From IMG/VR virus record IMGVR_UViG_3300006879_001214, positions 1-38,900 of that record: a DNA stretch of 38,900 bases. The stretch is one strand, 5' to 3'. Positions 1 to 37,545 of the stretch are shown here, in pieces (position 1 is the stretch's first letter; the number at the start of each line of letters is the position of its first letter). The notes under the pieces are model-generated. The model saw only the letters and a program-made list of their open reading frames with translations. It was not told the origin of the DNA and made no database searches. The position numbers and the translations under genes are program-made. The stretch is from a virus (lineage: Duplodnaviria; Caudoviricetes).

Positions 1-912
1 GTGCTGTTAGAAGATATTTTGGAAGAGTATCGTTACCATTGTTTAGCCCGTAATTTCACCACTAAAACAATGAAGAACAAGAGGCAAGAGTACAAGCAGT
101 TGTTAGAATTTCTACAACAAAGAAGAGCAATCACAAAATTAGAAAGTATAACCTCTCACGATCTTGATGCTTATATTCGCACGAAACGTCAAAAAGGGTT
201 GAAACCCCAATCTATTGTGTCGATGGCTAAGCAAGTGAAAGCATTTTTTAGTTGGTGTGTAAGAGAAGATTATTTGACGGAAAATCCGATGGATAAAGTT
301 ACTCTACCAAAACTACCTAAAGTATTATTAACCGGGCTGACAACTAAAGAAGTAGTTAGCATGATGGATTCTTTCAACAATAAGAAGTATTTAGAAGTAA
401 GAAACAAAGCAATTATTGCTATGATGGCAGACTGTGGGCTAAGAGCCATGGAAATAGCAGGATTGAAGGAAGATGATGTACGTGAGACCGATATTAAGGT
501 ATTTGGCAAAGGAAATAAGGAACGCATTGTATTTATCAGTCCAGCATTAAAGAAGATACTTATACGCTATGAACGATTGAAAAGACAATACTTTAAAAAC
601 AAGATCAAGTATAGCGATAATTATTTTCTTGCTTACCAAGGCAAAGCATTGTCAACTGTAGCTGTTTATAATCTGGTTGTTGAAGCAAGTAAGCGTGTAG
701 GAATAACAGGTAAAAGAGTATCGCCGCATATGTTCAGGCATTACTTTGCTGTTCAATCAATCGTTGCAGGCATTGATGTATACAGTTTATCTAGGCTGCT
801 TGGACATTCTGATCTATCAACTACACAACGTTATTTACAGTCTTTGCAGAATGATGAATTAAATGTAAAAGCAACGTCAAGCAGTCCATTGATGAATCTT
901 AACAAAAATTAA
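1..912 (+). CDS. Tyrosine recombinase/integrase (XerC/D-like, no arm-binding domain)
   Basis: Catalytic motifs GLR, GKGNKER, HMFRH, LLGH, TQRY; N-terminal SAM-like core-binding domain; 303 aa. Confidence 0.95.
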   Translation: MLLEDILEEYRYHCLARNFTTKTMKNKRQEYKQLLEFLQQRRAITKLESITSHDLDAYIRTKRQKGLKPQSIVSMAKQVKAFFSWCVREDYLTENPMDKVTLPKLPKVLLTGLTTKEVVSMMDSFNNKKYLEVRNKAIIAMMADCGLRAMEIAGLKEDDVRETDIKVFGKGNKERIVFISPALKKILIRYERLKRQYFKNKIKYSDNYFLAYQGKALSTVAVYNLVVEASKRVGITGKRVSPHMFRHYFAVQSIVAGIDVYSLSRLLGHSDLSTTQRYLQSLQNDELNVKATSSSPLMNLNKN

Positions 913-922
913 AGATGAACAT

Positions 923-962
923 AAAAAAATGGCTCGGAGAGTGCTACCAACACTTCCAAGCC
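923..962 (-). terminator. Intrinsic terminator of the antisense RNA
   Basis: Minus strand GGCTTGGAAGTG-TTGGTAG-CACTCTCCGAGCC then ATTTTTTT; no U-run follows on plus strand. Confidence 0.8.
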
Positions 963-1020
963 TAAGCAATATCAAAGCACCACACCAATAATTGAATAAC
1001 AATTAAATAGGCTCTGATGC
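923..1020 (-). ncRNA. Candidate ~97-nt antisense (countertranscript) RNA
   Basis: Lies between a consensus minus-strand promoter (1026-1054) and a minus-strand terminator (923-962); folds into two stem-loops (971-978/1011-1018 and 931-962), terminator loop UUGGUAG. Confidence 0.7.
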
Positions 1021-1025
1021 CTTGT

Positions 1026-1054
1026 ATTATACCATTTAAAGGGTTGTCATGCAA
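1026..1054 (-). promoter_or_regulatory. SigA-type promoter with extended -10
   Basis: Minus strand TTGCAT-17 nt-TATAAT with TG at the extended -10 position. Confidence 0.8.
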
Positions 1055-1059
1055 GGTGT

Positions 1060-1600
1060 TAACCAAGTTGAGGACAGCCAGAAGCTCAACTATAAAATAA
1101 AACTGATAGCCATGACTCAGGCGATGCAGATAAATGAGGATAGGATACATAAACACTTCCCTATTAGTGTGGTATCTGAAATGTGAAAGCTACATTAGTG
1201 CTGACGAAGGAAGGGTATGTGTCTACGGACACGTAGGACAAGCCACAGACGTTTATATTGTTAACCAGATATAAAACTAACCATCAAGGGATACTTGCGA
1301 TGTGTAGGCTTGTCGTGGAGAAATCTACCGACAAATAGGGGTCACGCATACGGAGACCTTAAATGCGATATACGATGATTGATGTTGTTACCTATTTTCA
1401 ATTGATAATTTTTTGTCAGCTGAAAATAGGTAACAACTTTGTCGTCAGCCGTTTTCCTTTTTGCTCAACCGATGATTGGGGAGTTCGAGAGCAAAGTCAA
1501 GTAATAACAACCAATTACAGCAAATTATCTCAGTGATTTAGTCTGCTGGCGTAGTCAGATGTCAGCTAGCTAGCGCAAAGGTTTGGGAAATAAACTACAT
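1060..1600 (+). ncRNA. Candidate large structured non-coding RNA downstream of integrase
   Basis: No credible ORF; many hand-paired helices incl. C(UACG)G loop 1216-1235, GAAA loop 1315-1328, multiloop 1237-1244/1307-1314, long-range 1200-1207/1442-1449, perfect 17-bp stem 1384-1400/1421-1437. Strand inferred from tetraloops and G-U pairs; ends uncertain. Confidence 0.6.
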
Positions 1601-1603
1601 AAT

Positions 1604-1637
1604 AAAAGACTGAGCAGCATAAGCCACTCAGTCATCT
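1604..1637 (-). terminator. Terminator of repressor gene, possibly bidirectional
   Basis: GACTGAG...CTCAGTC stem with A-run on the left (U-run on minus strand) at the repressor stop. Confidence 0.6.
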
Positions 1638-1861
1638 TTGCTAAACTCAATCAATTGATCAGCAGAATCCAACTCTAATGCATTACAAAGTAAATCTAAT
1701 GTATCAAACTGTATGCCATTGCTATTTCCATTTAACAGTTTGCTTATAGTATTACGATGTACACCCTTCCCATCAGGATCTAACTGTTTAGTTTTCTCGA
1801 CTAAGTCAGCAGTACTTATATCGTTTTTATCCATGTGATATCGCAAATTAAATTTAATCAA
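1628..1861 (-). CDS. Cro/CI-type (XRE) HTH repressor, no peptidase domain
   Basis: ISTADLVEK...VHRNTISKLLNG...IQFDTLDLLCNAL pattern; start placed at TTG downstream of AGGAG (track start 1870). Confidence 0.85.
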   Translation of the reverse strand: MIKFNLRYHMDKNDISTADLVEKTKQLDPDGKGVHRNTISKLLNGNSNGIQFDTLDLLCNALELDSADQLIEFSKDD

Positions 1862-1881
1862 AATGATCAACTCCTGAAATT

Positions 1882-3770: not shown

Positions 3771-4961
3771 ATGAACGAATTGACATTATCAGATGATTTG
3801 AACGTCATCACAGCGGAGATTAAAAATTACCAACAAAATATTGGTCAATCCATATTTGAAATTGGTAAACGCCTAAAACATGTTAAAGAAAATGATCTTG
3901 CTCATGGGGAATGGGGCAAGTGGTTAGAAAACATTAAAATGAACGATAGCTATGCTAGAAAATACATACACATATCCACTGAATTATGGGAGAACCGTTC
4001 AACGTTGAACGATTTGGGGATGTCAGCATTATACGAAATCTCTACGATGTCAGAAGAGGAGAGGGAAAAGGAGTACTCTCTTTCAAATGGAAAGATTAAA
4101 AAGCCAGTTGATATGACTGTTAAGGAGATCCGTCAGACTAAGCGTCAACTTAGCAACGAAGCACTGGAGGCAGCAATAAAATCAGTTGAGGCTGAATCAA
4201 TTGAACCTGAATCAATTGAAGGTGAAGAAGATAAACAAGAAATGTACGACGAATATCAAGCTCACATTGATCACTTGAATCAAGTAGAAGACGAAAACGA
4301 CAATTTTACACAGCAACTGGATAATATTAACCGAAAACTTTACGGTAAATTAAGAGACTTAAAGTTTTACGACCACTTAAACATTGCTTACTGGCTTTCC
4401 AAATTTACCAAAGAGAAGCAAAAGCAAATAGAGGATATTGAACTAAGCAGTAAATTTAAAGTCACCTTTTCTGATATCGATTCTTTTTATCAGCGTTACA
4501 TAAATTATACACCGATTAACGGAAAACAGATAAATAGGCTCAACCAGTTACAGTGGAAAAACGAGCAGTCCAGTTTCTTTGATAAAGTAAGCTTTTATGA
4601 TGACGATAGTTTTCATTCTAAAATAGGCAGTGCAAAAACAACAAATGAGATTGATAGTATTCTAGACGAATTTGAACAAGTGATTGAACAAAGTAGTAGG
4701 AAGAAGACAAACCAATCGAATAGTAATAACTCAAACTTTGATTGGAGTAGTTTATTTGGGAACACATCTACATCATCTATAGTCAACTACCGTGAAGAGT
4801 TGGGATTGTCTTCTACAGCATCAAACGATGAGGTGAAAAAAGAGTTTCGCAACTTAATGAAAGTTCTTCATCCTGATCATGGAGGCAATGCAAGATTACA
4901 GCAAAAATATAAAGAAATGTATGACGATTGGAGAAAAAGTATTAAAAATAAGTCGGCGTGA
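3771..4961 (+). CDS. DUF3102-like protein with C-terminal J-domain
   Basis: N-term EIGKRLKHVKENDLAHGEWGKWL typical of DUF3102; C-term LGLSSTASNDEVKKEFRNLMKVLHPDHGG with HPD motif. Confidence 0.8.
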   Translation: MNELTLSDDLNVITAEIKNYQQNIGQSIFEIGKRLKHVKENDLAHGEWGKWLENIKMNDSYARKYIHISTELWENRSTLNDLGMSALYEISTMSEEEREKEYSLSNGKIKKPVDMTVKEIRQTKRQLSNEALEAAIKSVEAESIEPESIEGEEDKQEMYDEYQAHIDHLNQVEDENDNFTQQLDNINRKLYGKLRDLKFYDHLNIAYWLSKFTKEKQKQIEDIELSSKFKVTFSDIDSFYQRYINYTPINGKQINRLNQLQWKNEQSSFFDKVSFYDDDSFHSKIGSAKTTNEIDSILDEFEQVIEQSSRKKTNQSNSNNSNFDWSSLFGNTSTSSIVNYREELGLSSTASNDEVKKEFRNLMKVLHPDHGGNARLQQKYKEMYDDWRKSIKNKSA

Positions 4962-5109: not shown

Positions 5110-5295
5110 ATGGATAATAAACAATTTTTGTTTTGCTACAACTCAAGTTTATTTAGATATCTTACGGAAGAAAATAATTTCAATTACATAACAATTGCCA
5201 GAGAGCCTAAGAACAACAAAATGTTTTCATTATTTTACCGGTCGGATTCCCTCAACAGGAAACTAGCAGAATATAAGGGTCAGAAAAATGGGTAA
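5110..5295 (+). CDS. Small phage protein (DUF5659-like)
   Basis: 61 aa; F-x-CY...LFRYL...F-x-F-x-RS-x-x-L pattern; RBS AAGGAG. Confidence 0.6.
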   Translation: MDNKQFLFCYNSSLFRYLTEENNFNYITIAREPKNNKMFSLFYRSDSLNRKLAEYKGQKNG

Positions 5296-5479
5296 CAAAA
5301 GTTACTCTAATTCCGAGGGGTTCGGAATATGGGTAACAATAATTACCGTAATTTCTAACTGGTTCGGAATTAGGGTAAAAAAAGTTACCCGATTTACATA
5401 GATTACAGATAAGACCTTTGTTACAGATAAGACTATATATACAGATAAGATTACGCCAGCCCCGTTGGGGACTGGACGT
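5290..5479. repeat. Iteron array, candidate replication origin
   Basis: GGGTAAC-N4-GTTACCC-like palindromes at 5290, 5331, 5373; TACAGATAAGA at 5404, 5422, 5440; GC hairpin 5453-5479. Confidence 0.75.
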
Positions 5480-5528: not shown

Positions 5529-6272
5529 ATGCTACAAAGAAACTATTCAGACAAGCTACATATTAAAATTTACAACTCGATGATTGATGACAAGTCAGAT
5601 ATTAAACTAACACCGAGCGAGCTATACATCTATGCGCTGCTTTGTATTAATGCTACTTCAGATGATGACAGAATGATGCCTACTAGCGTTGATATGATTA
5701 ATTACATGTCACCATTCAGGTTTGCCACAAAGGATAATAACAATAAGAATCACATTAAAAAGGCGCTCACTGAACTAATGAGAAAAGATTATCTGCTGAT
5801 TGTCGATGATGGTATTCAGATAGATGACATTAAAAATAATACATTTCTTACATTGGAAATCAATCACGAAGCGTTAGATAACAAGTATGAACCACTTTAT
5901 TACAATGAATTTCGATTCTTGAGTAATCCTGATGAGGTATTCATTTACATAATATCAAAACGATTTACAGCCTTCTCAGAGGGATTTAAGGCTAGTTACA
6001 ACAGATGGGGAAGGTTACTCAATGTGAGTGACAAAACAGCGTCAAACAAGCTCAATGATGCTGAGAAAAACGGAGTTATCGAGGTTATCCGAGGTAAGTA
6101 TGAAGAGATCAACAGGCAGGAAATCAACTTATATTGTCATGTGGACTTGATGGGATTGAAGGATTTTGACGATGATGCTCAGGAAGAAGTTATGCAACCA
6201 AAAGTTAAGAAGTTGGCAATTGGTGAGAAGAAGATAAGTCCAGAGGAAGAAGCTAGAAGGGCATTTGGGTAA
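5529..6272 (+). CDS. Winged-HTH protein, putative replication initiator
   Basis: LTPSELYIYALL...IKKALTELMRKDYL and SYNRWGRLLNVSDKTASNKLNDAEKNGVI HTH-like segments; directly downstream of iterons. Confidence 0.55.
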   Translation: MLQRNYSDKLHIKIYNSMIDDKSDIKLTPSELYIYALLCINATSDDDRMMPTSVDMINYMSPFRFATKDNNNKNHIKKALTELMRKDYLLIVDDGIQIDDIKNNTFLTLEINHEALDNKYEPLYYNEFRFLSNPDEVFIYIISKRFTAFSEGFKASYNRWGRLLNVSDKTASNKLNDAEKNGVIEVIRGKYEEINRQEINLYCHVDLMGLKDFDDDAQEEVMQPKVKKLAIGEKKISPEEEARRAFG

Positions 6273-6377: not shown

Positions 6378-9002
6378 ATGGCTAACAATATCAATCAAAA
6401 CGTATATATTCAATCAATCGAGGCAGCTTCAATCTATACTCATACCACACGATCAACTAAAATTGATCCATCATACGTGGGTATGATTCCATATAGCTTA
6501 GAATTAATTAAATTACATAAAGTAGGATTAACTACAAGCAGCACAAAGACTAATTCTAAGATACTCAGCGATGACATAATCAACGTTAAATTTAATCAAA
6601 AAGTAAAGTCGGGCACTGAGATAATCAATATCTATGAAAATAAAATAGATGAGTTAACCGTACATAGCGAACTAACCGATCAAGAAGAAGCTTATCAGAT
6701 ATACTTAGAGGACAGCATGCAAGCGATTAGACAAGAGTTACATGAAGACAAATGGAATCAACTTAGCAATGATGAATTAAGGCAGGAAATGTATCTAAAT
6801 GGCTTTATGTTGGATGGTGTACAATATGTTGTGTACAAACGGTCATCATCTAAAAGTAGAACAGGCCAGTGTTTATTTATCCGCAAAGAGCTACACGATG
6901 AGATGATTGATTGGAGCAGAATGTATTTGCCATTCGCAGAAGATCAGGAGGTTGATTTGGCTAGTCTGTTAGCTTATGAGTCATTAGTAGGTAGTAGCAT
7001 TGAGGGCACGGTTAAAATCAATCCTAAGCATATTTTGTTGGTTGATGATGTGGACAGCAAATTTACTCAAAAGGCAAATGTAGTTAAAGCTGGAAGCAAT
7101 GGATATTTAGATAGTGTGACTGACGATAATGCAGAGATGAGTAATAGTTTATTTGATGGAGAATCATTGTTGGAATCTGAGTATTTTCCAGAAGGTAAAA
7201 GTATGATATTGCTTAGAAATCATATGATGAAGTCAGCAGCATTTAACACTAATATTCAACAGTTTCTTAAAGATAATTGTCCAGAAGGGATCAACTTTGA
7301 TGAGTGGGAAATAGAAGATATGTACGGGGATACTATATTGGCATCATCTATCCATATGATAACAACTCCTTCTTCCATTAAAGCATTAAAATTTGCTGAT
7401 GTGATTGGCTCTGAGCAGGACATGTGGAATTACTGGAAGGAATTAGTTGAGTTTGAAGGAAGCATATTTGGAGTCTGTAAAACTGAATCAGAAAGCACTA
7501 GAGGCTATGATGCGGAAGGTAATGTGTTACAGCAGACTAGCTACCAAATGCTTAACAGTATGCCCCTGAGCAAGGATGATGTTGCTAATTTGAGTCAGTT
7601 TGAAAAGGACTACATAGATGGATTAAAGAATGATGATGATAAATTTATTGAGCATATTAGCAAAGGGATAAATGAAGTTAATAGCAATAAGATGTTTGTG
7701 GATCTGGTTGCTGTCAATAAGAAGATCGTTAATACTAAGGTGTTTAGAGACTTCAGGAAAGCTGAGATTAACAGGCATGTTACTCATGTAAAGAAAGGTA
7801 AGTTAAGGCTGAATGGAGACTACTGTGTGATGTTGGGCAATCCAATGGAGATGTTGAAGCATAGTATTAAGAAGTTTGATGTAAACAGCTCAGGGTTAGC
7901 TCTAAATGACAATCAGATACATACTAAACTATTCGATTATGATAAAGAAATAGTTGGCTTCAGGAATCCTCATACTAGCCCATCAAACGTGCTAGTAGCT
8001 GAGAATGTGGCTAATGAAGATATAGACAAATATTTCAACTTAAGCAAGAATATTGTTGTGGTCAATGCTGTTAGATTCGCTATACAAGACACGCTAAGCG
8101 GTGCGGACTATGATAGTGATACGGTTATGTTAGTTGATGATAAAAGGTTACTCAGTGTGGCTAAGAGTTGCCTACAGTACCCAGTATGTATAAATGAGGT
8201 AGACAGTGAGAAAAAGACTTATACATTGAGCAAGGTTGATATGGTTGTTATCGATAACCAACTTTCATTAAGCCAAAAATACATAGGCCGAGTGGTCAAC
8301 TTAGGGCAAGAATTGATGTCATTATACTGGGATGGATTAGCAAATGGGAGTAGTAAAGATGACGTGGTTGATTTAATGGGCAAGGTTGATGTTATGACGG
8401 TGTTAAGTGGAATCGCTATTGACTTGGCTAAGAAAATGTACAACTTGGATATTGGAAAAGAGATTGCGTATGTGGAAAAGGTTGCAGATATGAGGAAGAA
8501 TAAGCCTGCATTCTTTAAGTTTATCAGTCAAAGTAAGACGATCAATAGTCGAGTTGAATTGTATGATTGTCCAATGGATTATTTGGGTGAGATGATGACT
8601 GGCTTACCCGATGCTAAGCGTAGAGAAAATATTAATCTGATTGATCTGTTGGTTAAAAAGAATGCTCAAAAGGGTAACAGGACTCAGCAGAAAAACATTA
8701 TAGATTATGTGGAAAAGATGAACAAGAAAATTAGTGAGATCCATTTATCTGAAGAGGATAAAGAAGAAAGGTTTGAGGCATTAGACGACACTGTTAAGTA
8801 TTATGAGTATTTTATTGAGAAAATGAAAGTCAATGAGAATACAATGTTCTCGGTATTGAGTAGTATGATTAAAAAGAATAGGTCAAATGTAACTGTAAGA
8901 CTCATGAATGTACTGTTTGTGACACAGAAAGAAACATTCTTGAAAGCATTCAAAGATGATGGGAAAGAAAACATTAACTTAATATTTTCTGAGATTGCAT
9001 GA
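6378..9002 (+). CDS. YonO-like single-subunit (double-psi beta-barrel) RNA polymerase
   Basis: 874 aa; YKRSSSKSRTGQCLFI, FDGESLL, LRNHMMKSAAF, FRNPH and metal-binding LSGADYDSD (DxDxD, nt 8106-8120). Confidence 0.88.
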   Translation: MANNINQNVYIQSIEAASIYTHTTRSTKIDPSYVGMIPYSLELIKLHKVGLTTSSTKTNSKILSDDIINVKFNQKVKSGTEIINIYENKIDELTVHSELTDQEEAYQIYLEDSMQAIRQELHEDKWNQLSNDELRQEMYLNGFMLDGVQYVVYKRSSSKSRTGQCLFIRKELHDEMIDWSRMYLPFAEDQEVDLASLLAYESLVGSSIEGTVKINPKHILLVDDVDSKFTQKANVVKAGSNGYLDSVTDDNAEMSNSLFDGESLLESEYFPEGKSMILLRNHMMKSAAFNTNIQQFLKDNCPEGINFDEWEIEDMYGDTILASSIHMITTPSSIKALKFADVIGSEQDMWNYWKELVEFEGSIFGVCKTESESTRGYDAEGNVLQQTSYQMLNSMPLSKDDVANLSQFEKDYIDGLKNDDDKFIEHISKGINEVNSNKMFVDLVAVNKKIVNTKVFRDFRKAEINRHVTHVKKGKLRLNGDYCVMLGNPMEMLKHSIKKFDVNSSGLALNDNQIHTKLFDYDKEIVGFRNPHTSPSNVLVAENVANEDIDKYFNLSKNIVVVNAVRFAIQDTLSGADYDSDTVMLVDDKRLLSVAKSCLQYPVCINEVDSEKKTYTLSKVDMVVIDNQLSLSQKYIGRVVNLGQELMSLYWDGLANGSSKDDVVDLMGKVDVMTVLSGIAIDLAKKMYNLDIGKEIAYVEKVADMRKNKPAFFKFISQSKTINSRVELYDCPMDYLGEMMTGLPDAKRRENINLIDLLVKKNAQKGNRTQQKNIIDYVEKMNKKISEIHLSEEDKEERFEALDDTVKYYEYFIEKMKVNENTMFSVLSSMIKKNRSNVTVRLMNVLFVTQKETFLKAFKDDGKENINLIFSEIA

Positions 9003-10227: not shown

Positions 10228-11016
10228 ATGCATTCGTTTTTCGGGTTTATTAAGAAGTATTGGAGTGTTGGTTGGAAAGCGCTTAGGGAGTGGAGAAAAA
10301 CCTGGGGAAGTATTATAAGTCTACTTATCCCTGTCGTCATTACATTTCCTAGTATAAATGAGTATTTAGATGGAAGCGGTTATCTTATTGCTCTTGTTAT
10401 TCTTTTGGTATTAATTGGATGGTTACAATCCAATAAGAATATCTTGGGACACTCTGAACTTGAAAGTCAATTGGATCGAATTGAAAATCAACGGGATACT
10501 CTTGAAGCGAATCTACAGTCTGTCCCGACCCGGATTGTAAAGCACATGTTTCAAGATATTGGTCTTAATTCTAAAGATAGGATTACCATTTATAGATATC
10601 ATGATGACCAGTTTATAAATATTGGCAGACACTCAGATAATGTTGAATTTGCAAAAAAGGGTAGGTCAGCATATCCTAAAGATGAAGGGTTTATTGGTCA
10701 ATGTTGGCGGGAAGATTATGTGTATGTTGAAAGGCTTCCTATCTATGACAAAAAACCAGAAAGATACATTACTCAAGTGTCTAAAAAGGCTGATATTAAA
10801 AAAGGTGTATTGAGAGAAATGCCTATGAAAAGTAGATGCTATTATTGTAAAAAAATTTTTGATACAAAAGGTATCGCATTTGCGGTGATTGTCGTTGAAA
10901 CCACGAAATATTCACTTGGTGATAAAAAAGACAAAGTGGATCAAATTTTAAATGATCAGTTTGGAAAGCTTCTAATTGAATCAATTGAAATCAATCTACC
11001 TCTAGGGAAAGGGTGA
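10228..11016 (+). CDS. Two-TM, coiled-coil, GAF-like protein; putative toxin/effector of Panacea module
   Basis: Two hydrophobic segments, heptad region, RITIYR...EGFIGQCW...AVIVVE; start moved to ATG after AGGGGG (track 10186); overlaps next gene. Confidence 0.6.
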   Translation: MHSFFGFIKKYWSVGWKALREWRKTWGSIISLLIPVVITFPSINEYLDGSGYLIALVILLVLIGWLQSNKNILGHSELESQLDRIENQRDTLEANLQSVPTRIVKHMFQDIGLNSKDRITIYRYHDDQFINIGRHSDNVEFAKKGRSAYPKDEGFIGQCWREDYVYVERLPIYDKKPERYITQVSKKADIKKGVLREMPMKSRCYYCKKIFDTKGIAFAVIVVETTKYSLGDKKDKVDQILNDQFGKLLIESIEINLPLGKG

Positions 11017-11492
11017 TGAAAATGGCAAAGATTAAAGAAGTTATTTATTATTTCTTAATAAACTATCCTTATAAAGATGAATTATCTAAAACAAGACTTA
11101 CAAAAATGATTTATTTGGCTGACTGGGAAAGTGCTAAGAGGTGCGGAAAACAGATAACTAAAATTAATTGGTATTTTGACCATTACGGCCCTTATGTCCC
11201 AGATGTTTATCAAGTTGCTTTAAAGGATAAAAAAATAAATATAAAGAAAGGATTTTCAGCGTTTGGGAGTCCTAAAGAAACGATTGAGTTTGATAAGGGG
11301 TATGCTGATTACTCAGTCGATAACGTGAGATTGAATATAGAACAAGTAGAAATTTTAGATAAGGTTATTGAAGACACCAAGTATCTAAATTGGAATGATT
11401 TCATTAGTTATGTTTATTCCACAGAGCCAATTGAATCACAAGAAAAATACAAAAAACTGGATTTAGTTAAACTTGCTGAAGAACCGATGTAA
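11013..11492 (+). CDS. Panacea/SocA (DUF4065) antitoxin-family protein
   Basis: KTRLTKMIYLADW...GKQIT...W-x-x-x-HYGPY signature. Confidence 0.85.
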   Translation: MMKMAKIKEVIYYFLINYPYKDELSKTRLTKMIYLADWESAKRCGKQITKINWYFDHYGPYVPDVYQVALKDKKINIKKGFSAFGSPKETIEFDKGYADYSVDNVRLNIEQVEILDKVIEDTKYLNWNDFISYVYSTEPIESQEKYKKLDLVKLAEEPM

Positions 11493-37224: not shown

Positions 37225-37545
37225 ATGAATGTAAATGACAGAGGTACAAAGAAATGGTCATCGATCATGTTACCTGAACATGTAGACGCATTAAAGCAGG
37301 TATTTGCAGAACAAGAATATAAGGAAAAGCCAATACTGGATGATCAGCAGAAGGTTGAAATTGATTTAAAGCTGCAGATTGCAATACAAAATGATCTACC
37401 AATAGAGGTTGAGTATTTTAAAGATCATGATTTCCACAAGATCAAGGATAAAGTATTGACTATCGATTCATTGAATAGATATTTAAGACTAGAAAAAATT
37501 GATAAGTTGCATTTAAATGATATAATAGATGTACAAATATTATGA
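37225..37545 (+). CDS. yolD: YolD-like protein
   Basis: DRGTKKW..IMLPEH...KPILD signature; SOS box upstream. Confidence 0.88.
   Translation: MNVNDRGTKKWSSIMLPEHVDALKQVFAEQEYKEKPILDDQQKVEIDLKLQIAIQNDLPIEVEYFKDHDFHKIKDKVLTIDSLNRYLRLEKIDKLHLNDIIDVQIL

Follow-up and report, generated by a model that had tools for sequence, protein, structure and literature searches.

The gene-free stretch behind the integrase of a temperate tailed phage is, by sequence comparison, a distant relative of oriLS20, the Rep-less origin found on pLS20, a plasmid from Bacillus subtilis, and it probably encodes an RNA that initiates replication. The window, meaning the whole stretch of DNA that was analysed (38,900 nt), is a 38.9-kb provirus record. 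We put at roughly 70% the probability that the element specifies an antisense-controlled RNA replication initiator, which would open its origin as an R-loop at a downstream segment termed Y. This model rests on a conserved pseudoknotted fold, an antisense promoter motif upstream of it, a direct repeat whose two copies co-vary, and the homology to oriLS20. The strongest evidence for a replicon is the pLS20 match.

The integrase and the gene-free stretch

An initial annotation of the window had described 715 bp with no credible ORF after the integrase, and positions 913-1627 indeed contain only a 64-aa ORF on the minus strand. The integrase was rightly called Xer-like; it scores below the XerC/D cut-offs. 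As the annotation also claimed, no excisionase is recognised in the window and no plus-strand terminator is found behind the integrase; the latter makes integrase transcription the likely source of read-through into the element. The features discussed below are as follows.

1-912, plus strand: Xer-like tyrosine integrase, with matches to PF00589 and to a SAM domain
923-1019, minus strand: predicted antisense RNA of about 100 nt with two stem-loops, its start placed from the promoter spacing
923-962, minus strand: terminator of the antisense RNA (hairpin 931-962, U-tract 923-929)
1026-1054, minus strand: sigma-A-type promoter of the antisense RNA (-35 at 1054-1049, 17 bp, -10 at 1031-1026)
1065-1345, plus strand: covarying RNA core of helices and pseudoknots, from an alignment of 35 sequences
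1067-72/1085-90, 1143-48/1172-77, 1154-56/1167-69, 1182-85/1191-94, 1219-23/1228-32, 1237-44/1307-14 and 1282-84/1302-04, plus strand: helices of the core
1116-19/1135-38, 1159-65/1334-40, 1188-90/1200-02 and 1213-18/1291-96, plus strand: pseudoknots of the core
1355-1381, plus strand: segment X, the RNA copy of the repeat (core 1373-1381), whose predicted pairing partner is the minus DNA strand of Y
1384-1437, plus strand: long hairpin with 17-bp perfect arms (25 bp imperfect) and a U-rich loop
1446-1478, plus strand: putative origin or site of RNA invasion, made up of a conserved motif (1446-1457) and segment Y (1452-1478, with its core at 1470-1478)
1472-1500, minus strand: convergent promoter-like site, with a conserved -35 box (1500-1495) and a poorly conserved -10 position (1477-1472) that overlaps the repeat core
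1608-1870, minus strand: repressor gene in convergent orientation (1628-1870) with its terminator (1608-1633), both beyond the conserved element

Homologues and their distribution

Homologues were collected through integrase searches, DNA searches of plasmids, motif scans and genome searches, the last with either a 120-position covariance model or one DNA query. Matches were present in 6/246, 8/151, 7/67, 1/49, 2/151, 8/151 and 7/151 genomes of samples that overlap one another; in the class-wide sample, the type A model matched 2 of 151 genomes, both already among the known homologues. A profile matched 82 of the loci collected by then, and 51 were non-redundant. Five partial or decayed loci (L151, L157, L179, L181 and L190) were left out, and the final set of 46 comprises 35 sequences of subtype A, including the window, and 11 of subtype B, all 11 of which are found by the subtype A profile.

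The element occurs in Bacillales prophages, in phage-plasmids and in more than 100 plasmids. Searching 72,556 plasmid records with subtype B queries gave matches in 103 and in 114 of them. The INPHARED phages gave no match to the window or to L126 and a single match for subtype B. Searched against Rfam 15, which includes large and plasmid RNAs, the window and five homologous loci yielded no match at the gathering score; for the window, only chance matches appeared at E ≤ 5. One genome (G397) holds three copies of the element on different contigs (L181, L186 and L187), and L186 and L187 share the same repeat core.

A conserved, pseudoknotted RNA fold

The initial annotation proposed a structured plus-strand RNA of about 550 nt. 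Its length was not upheld, as the conserved part covers about 440 nt (approximately 1065-1500), while the plus-strand RNA itself is supported by covariation and by strand asymmetry. Compared with shuffled sequences, positions 1050-1600 fold with z = -5.1 on the plus strand and -2.2 on the minus strand, and the plus strand is the more stable relative to shuffles in 30 of the 35 homologues (six shuffles each). The 35-sequence alignment supports 60 pairs in 14 helices, with 94.5% of 2074 cells paired, against 36-42% in slid controls, which flatter the result because the pairs were chosen from the same sequences. Two-sided changes are seen at 48 of these 60 pairs among the 35 homologues. All four pseudoknot helices keep compensatory changes. 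The count of G-U against A-C combinations (213 vs 22) is biased, because the helices were chosen on the plus strand.

Pairing almost end to end had been proposed from the window alone, and 10 of the 11 helices tested do pair fully there; 1103-08/1124-29 forms only three of six pairs in the register tested. When a helix is called conserved in a homologue if at least 80% of it is paired, five of the proposed helices are conserved and five are not. Among the 35 homologues, 1237-44/1307-14 is kept in 33, 1143-48/1172-77 in 32, 1066-72/1085-91 in 29 and the GNRA hairpin in 22. The UACG hairpin is kept in 32 as its core (1219-23/1228-32), and in its 8-bp form in 16. The long-range pairing 1200-07/1442-49 and the helix 1460-66/1489-95 are each found in one homologue, 1338-43/1355-60 in three (its CGCAT/ATGCG alternative in two) and 1103-08/1124-29 in none, and the proposed 1545-66 hairpin lies outside the conserved element. 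The 25-bp inverted repeat at 1384-1437, the four pseudoknots, the antisense module and the co-varying direct repeat were absent from the earlier list.

No conserved small ORF was found in the element, since at most 5 of the 35 homologues share a start with a ribosome site, and a small toxin ORF was rejected on the same count. A mobile insertion with target duplication was also rejected as the origin of the long palindrome, because its arrangement with the repeat is conserved and neither repeat copy lies directly against it. An optional inserted domain of about 70 nt with a shared motif sits inside helix 1237-44/1307-14 (alignment columns ~225-310) in L104, L167, L169, L177, L182, L185, L187-L189 and L191.

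The leader and its predicted antisense RNA

Promoter and terminator motifs on the minus strand predict an antisense RNA that overlaps the 5′ end of the long RNA, which is a ColE1-type feature. Minus-strand promoters scoring at least 13 are present in 34 of 46 leaders, compared with 17% of shuffles; on the plus strand such scores occur in 9/46, about the shuffle rate, and no sense promoter stands out. Minus-strand terminators are found in 35/46 leaders (28% of shuffles), and a plus-strand terminator lies before the RNA and behind the antisense promoter in 27/46 (22% of shuffles). Equilibrium folding predicts a clear attenuation switch in only 6 of the 40 leaders folded; in the window, a U-run is missing at this place. 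The RNA I region of the ColE1 record (L139) contains two copies, at 659-667 and 692-700, of the nine bases at 943-951. For the homologue L100, two raw-read runs gave 0 reads, and six contig runs, all for this homologue, show presence only; contigs cannot show strand or ends.

A direct repeat that changes in step

Segment Y lies about 97 bp downstream of X, and the two change in step as a direct repeat. Column analysis relates 1364-1377 to 1461-1474 by identity and not by complementarity. Across 35 homologues, X scores 20.3 against its own Y and 14.2 against the Y of others, a difference reached in 0 of 20,000 permutations, and the own Y ranks first in 14/35 and within the top three in 24/35. 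The reverse-complement control has no own-Y effect (12.3 vs 11.9). Subtype B behaves likewise, with 15.7 for own and 12.4 for other Y (9 of 20,000 permutations). The repeat core varies widely between homologues; even the sisters window and L004 (support 100/99, 78% identical) have different cores, altered in both copies. Such changes are as expected if an RNA pairs with the opposite DNA strand; read most simply, X in the RNA would base-pair at Y with the minus DNA strand. The top column pairs include no third RNA partner that would be complementary.

The core of Y is placed at a near-fixed distance from the conserved minus-strand -35 box, at about positions -12 to -5. The repeat overlaps the -10 position in 33 of 45 cases, a figure partly forced by the 17-nt search window. 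A transcript starting at this promoter-like site would exclude the Y core.

Homology to the pLS20 origin

The profile matches pLS20 in two collinear pieces, at about 65,027-65,152 (E = 2.3e-6, 20.1 bits) and 65,332-65,515 (E = 2.1e-4, 13.7 bits), whereas 200 shuffles and the reversed sequence score at most 0.3 bits. We take NC_015148.1 to mirror AB615352, which fits the cat gene and the layout seen. Both matches fall inside bp 64,501-65,745, given as the pLS20 replication module in the available text of PMC8557374, and fill most of its ORF-free stretch; the same text describes the ORF-free module as sufficient for replication. Read by eye, the pLS20 copy keeps the antisense promoter and a terminator with its U-run; of the fold, it retains the first hairpin, the U-loop hairpin and two pseudoknots in which changes are compensatory. 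Its X/Y repeat is identical at 15 of 18 positions.

This class E theta replicon of B. subtilis thus shares with the window collinear homology over both halves, motifs, pseudoknots, the long hairpin and the X/Y repeat. Neither oriLS20 nor the window module (about 1.1 kb) has an initiator gene, and oriLS20, which adjoins alp7A, sits beside a partition cassette like several relatives of the element. In contrast, the two are too diverged for BLAST-level grouping, the window element is in an integrated prophage and not on a plasmid, and a middle domain carrying a perfect DnaA box is inserted in pLS20 and absent from the window. The accessible part of PMC8557374 reports DnaA boxes at conserved positions in oriLS20 and its 35 BLAST relatives. 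Among the 46 homologues, however, perfect boxes occur in three (15% of shuffles have them), with none in the window and one in pLS20, and near-boxes occur at the shuffle rate, so that there is no enrichment in the wider family. The window is therefore a distant relative and not a member of the narrow pLS20 plasmid family.

In 2021, the way in which the pLS20 origin starts was called largely unknown, and DnaA was proposed, not an RNA (PMC8557374, available text). The open literature holds no description of oriLS20 or the element as a structured RNA, as far as the accessible portions of PMC5737381, PMC6199540, PMC5043065, PMC3026805, PMC4412123, PMC8026635, PMC2901330, PMC4490491, PMC9743546 and PMC8557374 go; supplements and subscription papers, which lie outside this scope, may mention hairpins, an antisense RNA or the motif. 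The RNA reading of the oriLS20-type element and its guide-like repeat appear to be new.

Plasmid carriers and other candidate initiators

In ten small plasmid records, 117 of 145 ORFs were scanned, with short ones left out, and 17 were also compared with PHROGs. Among the ORFs scanned, six plasmids (L095, L131, L132, L133, L137 and L138) have no match to a Rep family, and none of the six has a typed replicon. The other carriers have candidates of their own: L097 encodes a Replic_Relax protein, L134 and L136 short HTH_36/DnaD_N proteins, and L135, checked separately, its own replication protein. Replicons typed by MOB-suite are present on pALH1, pLVP1401, pE33L54 and p33. The element adjoins parA on pALH1 and pLVP1401; a phage initiator and loader are encoded elsewhere on pALH1. 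In L013, a related prophage, the position of the element is taken by an initiator-like HTH protein, which speaks for a replicon role; the leader before it shares only the antisense hairpin and is not matched by the leader profile.

Plasmids L095, L131-L134 and L138 form a B. cereus-group family of about 7-8 kb with resolvase and HTH genes and no typed replicon. One of them carries a small-terminase-like gene, and the family may be phage satellites.

A model of RNA-initiated replication and its alternatives

According to the initiator model, a plus-strand transcript, which in the prophage would probably be read through from the integrase, enters the leader, where the antisense RNA would restrict the frequency with which the complete RNA is produced or folds, and thus set copy number. 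The RNA would then fold so that the long hairpin loops out the spacer and brings X beside Y. Pairing of X with the minus strand at Y would form an R-loop over the convergent promoter-like site, with a displaced strand on which the host primosome might load helicase; by analogy with pLS20, Pol I would not be needed. In a prophage, the excised circle could persist or amplify as a plasmid. The initial annotation had offered an RNA pre-primer for replication among its suggestions; the replication role is backed by the oriLS20 homologue and by plasmids without a recognisable Rep. For its further suggestion of a ribozyme-like element, no evidence was found. The RNA's own end might prime rightwards, as in ColE1, or the RNA might hold the site open for a short leftward primer. 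Theta replication of pLS20 is autonomous and independent of Pol I, and the plasmid replicates in a polA mutant (PMC4490491 and PMC9743546, available text), which favours opening for helicase loading. Counted against the model are the sense promoter at shuffle rate, the rarity of the switch, the lack of an observed transcript, the several carriers with other candidate initiators, the window's own possible protein replicon, the L013 leader that the leader profile misses, and the distance of the pLS20 match and its division into two pieces.

The annotation's leading idea, an RNA that serves the integrase as a cofactor or directionality factor, is now very improbable, and so is a guide role. A tyrosine recombinase is the first upstream ORF in 17/46 loci and among the nearest ORFs in 27/46, and the lack of a recognised excisionase would suit such a factor. 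However, the RNA stands behind only two of nine close full-length integrases (52-83% identity) and is absent behind the closest relatives (83% and 71%). Moreover, in 19/46 loci none of the nearest ORFs, up to three per side, is a tyrosine recombinase (some flanks being short), and the RNA occurs on plasmids without one and near a serine recombinase. It is thus not an obligate neighbour of a recombinase, unlike the RNA expected of an RNA-guided recombinase, and the frequent linkage fits an integrase-plus-replicon module. Guidance to att sites was rejected, as the attachment repeats of two relatives, upstream of the integrase, show no more than chance similarity to the RNA (E ≥ 0.21). These repeats, in L018 and L014, are unusually long (144 and 81 bp) and have their far ends in L211 and L212; both cover the same small host gene, presumably yneF-like, at its 3′ end.

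A replication origin that works as DNA, opened by host DnaA or as a folded single strand (sso-like), with the repeat as a pair of protein sites, is an unlikely but more serious alternative. It would account for the DnaA boxes reported for oriLS20 and its close relatives and for the absence of reads, and G-T wobble also occurs in single-stranded DNA. The scarcity of boxes in the wider family speaks against it, the pseudoknots, the UACG and GNRA-type loops and the antisense module point to RNA, and the widely differing repeat core has no shared plasmid protein to read it. Slightly less likely again is an RNA with another maintenance role (incompatibility, partition aid, RNA-only addiction or defence) that merely travels with replicons. 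The antisense partner, the frequent position beside par genes and the other candidate initiators of several carriers would be in keeping with this role; the lack of a conserved small ORF and the varied downstream genes, convergent in the window, are not, and in pLS20 the element fills most of a module described as sufficient for replication.

Relation to known systems

In pT181 and pIP501, antisense RNAs attenuate expression of rep. An antisense promoter followed by a plus-strand terminator, as in these plasmids, is present in the 27 leaders noted above; unlike them, the element would control an RNA and not a rep gene, and it differs in the rarity of the folded switch and the missing U-run in the window. 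ColE1-type (class B) replicons, with RNA II and its antisense RNA I, follow the same Rep-less logic with a folded RNA of several hundred nt. Like the element, as predicted, ColE1 has an antisense RNA of about 100 nt at the 5′ end with the shared 9-base loop motif, a hairpin with a U-rich loop before the origin, and an RNA tract that pairs with template DNA. This pairing is essential in ColE1 (PMC4412123, available text), which needs RNase H and Pol I (PMC5043065, available text), whereas the pLS20 relative is reported to be Pol I-independent. In addition, RNA II has no sequence homology to the element, the profile has no match on L139, and the pairing tract is a G-run in ColE1 and a variable multi-block repeat in the element. 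ARRPOF, GEBRO and PAGEV are likewise structured plasmid motifs tied to replication, and the region around ARRPOF is gene-free and suffices for replication (PMC5737381, Weinberg 2017, available text); these motifs are shorter and belong to other hosts, and the element has no Rfam 15 match.

An RNA initiator, if true, would account for the ability of these origins to function with no initiator protein, and would constitute a Gram-positive RNA-initiated replicon distinct from ColE1. The element gives a structural model for the Rep-less pLS20 origin in a plasmid tractable in the laboratory, and it would provide many plasmids and phage-plasmids of Bacillus that are untyped with a candidate origin; some integrated prophages may keep a plasmid mode, and a compact, orthogonal family of Bacillus vectors could result. 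More tentatively, as a possibility short of an expectation, class E replicons might be RNA-guided origins. In these, a pseudoknotted RNA with a freely re-programmable guide would pair with the -10 region of a convergent promoter and hold it open in place of Rep, perhaps even in trans. Incompatibility would in that case be determined by guide and target, and the family would span pLS20, more than 100 Bacillus plasmids and phage-plasmids, and integrated prophages.

Other features of the window

A gene at 5529-6272 (plus strand) encodes a winged-helix, initiator-like protein and is a possible protein replicon of the window's own; the protein has no detectable relation to the slot protein of L013. 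Upstream, at 5277-5450, lie three palindromic repeats with a spacing of 41-42 bp and three repeats of 11 bp with a spacing of 18 bp, and no similar iteron-like arrays were seen in the equivalent regions of four relatives. Repeats and gene together are perhaps an operator array or a lytic origin.

Between the divergent repressor and early promoters, positions 1882-1969 contain a 26-bp direct repeat and a palindrome, which are likely operators. The window also encodes a DUF3102 protein with a C-terminal DnaJ domain (3771-4961), a Panacea antitoxin-domain protein (11013-11492) and a YolD-like protein (37225-37545). At 6378-9002 (plus strand), an 874-aa protein resembles single-chain RNA polymerases of the two-barrel, RdRP-like type; its acidic motif, at residue 577, is a variant one. 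We would liken the protein to SPbeta YonO. Relatives of this protein occur in several RNA-bearing prophages, and in one prophage without the RNA.
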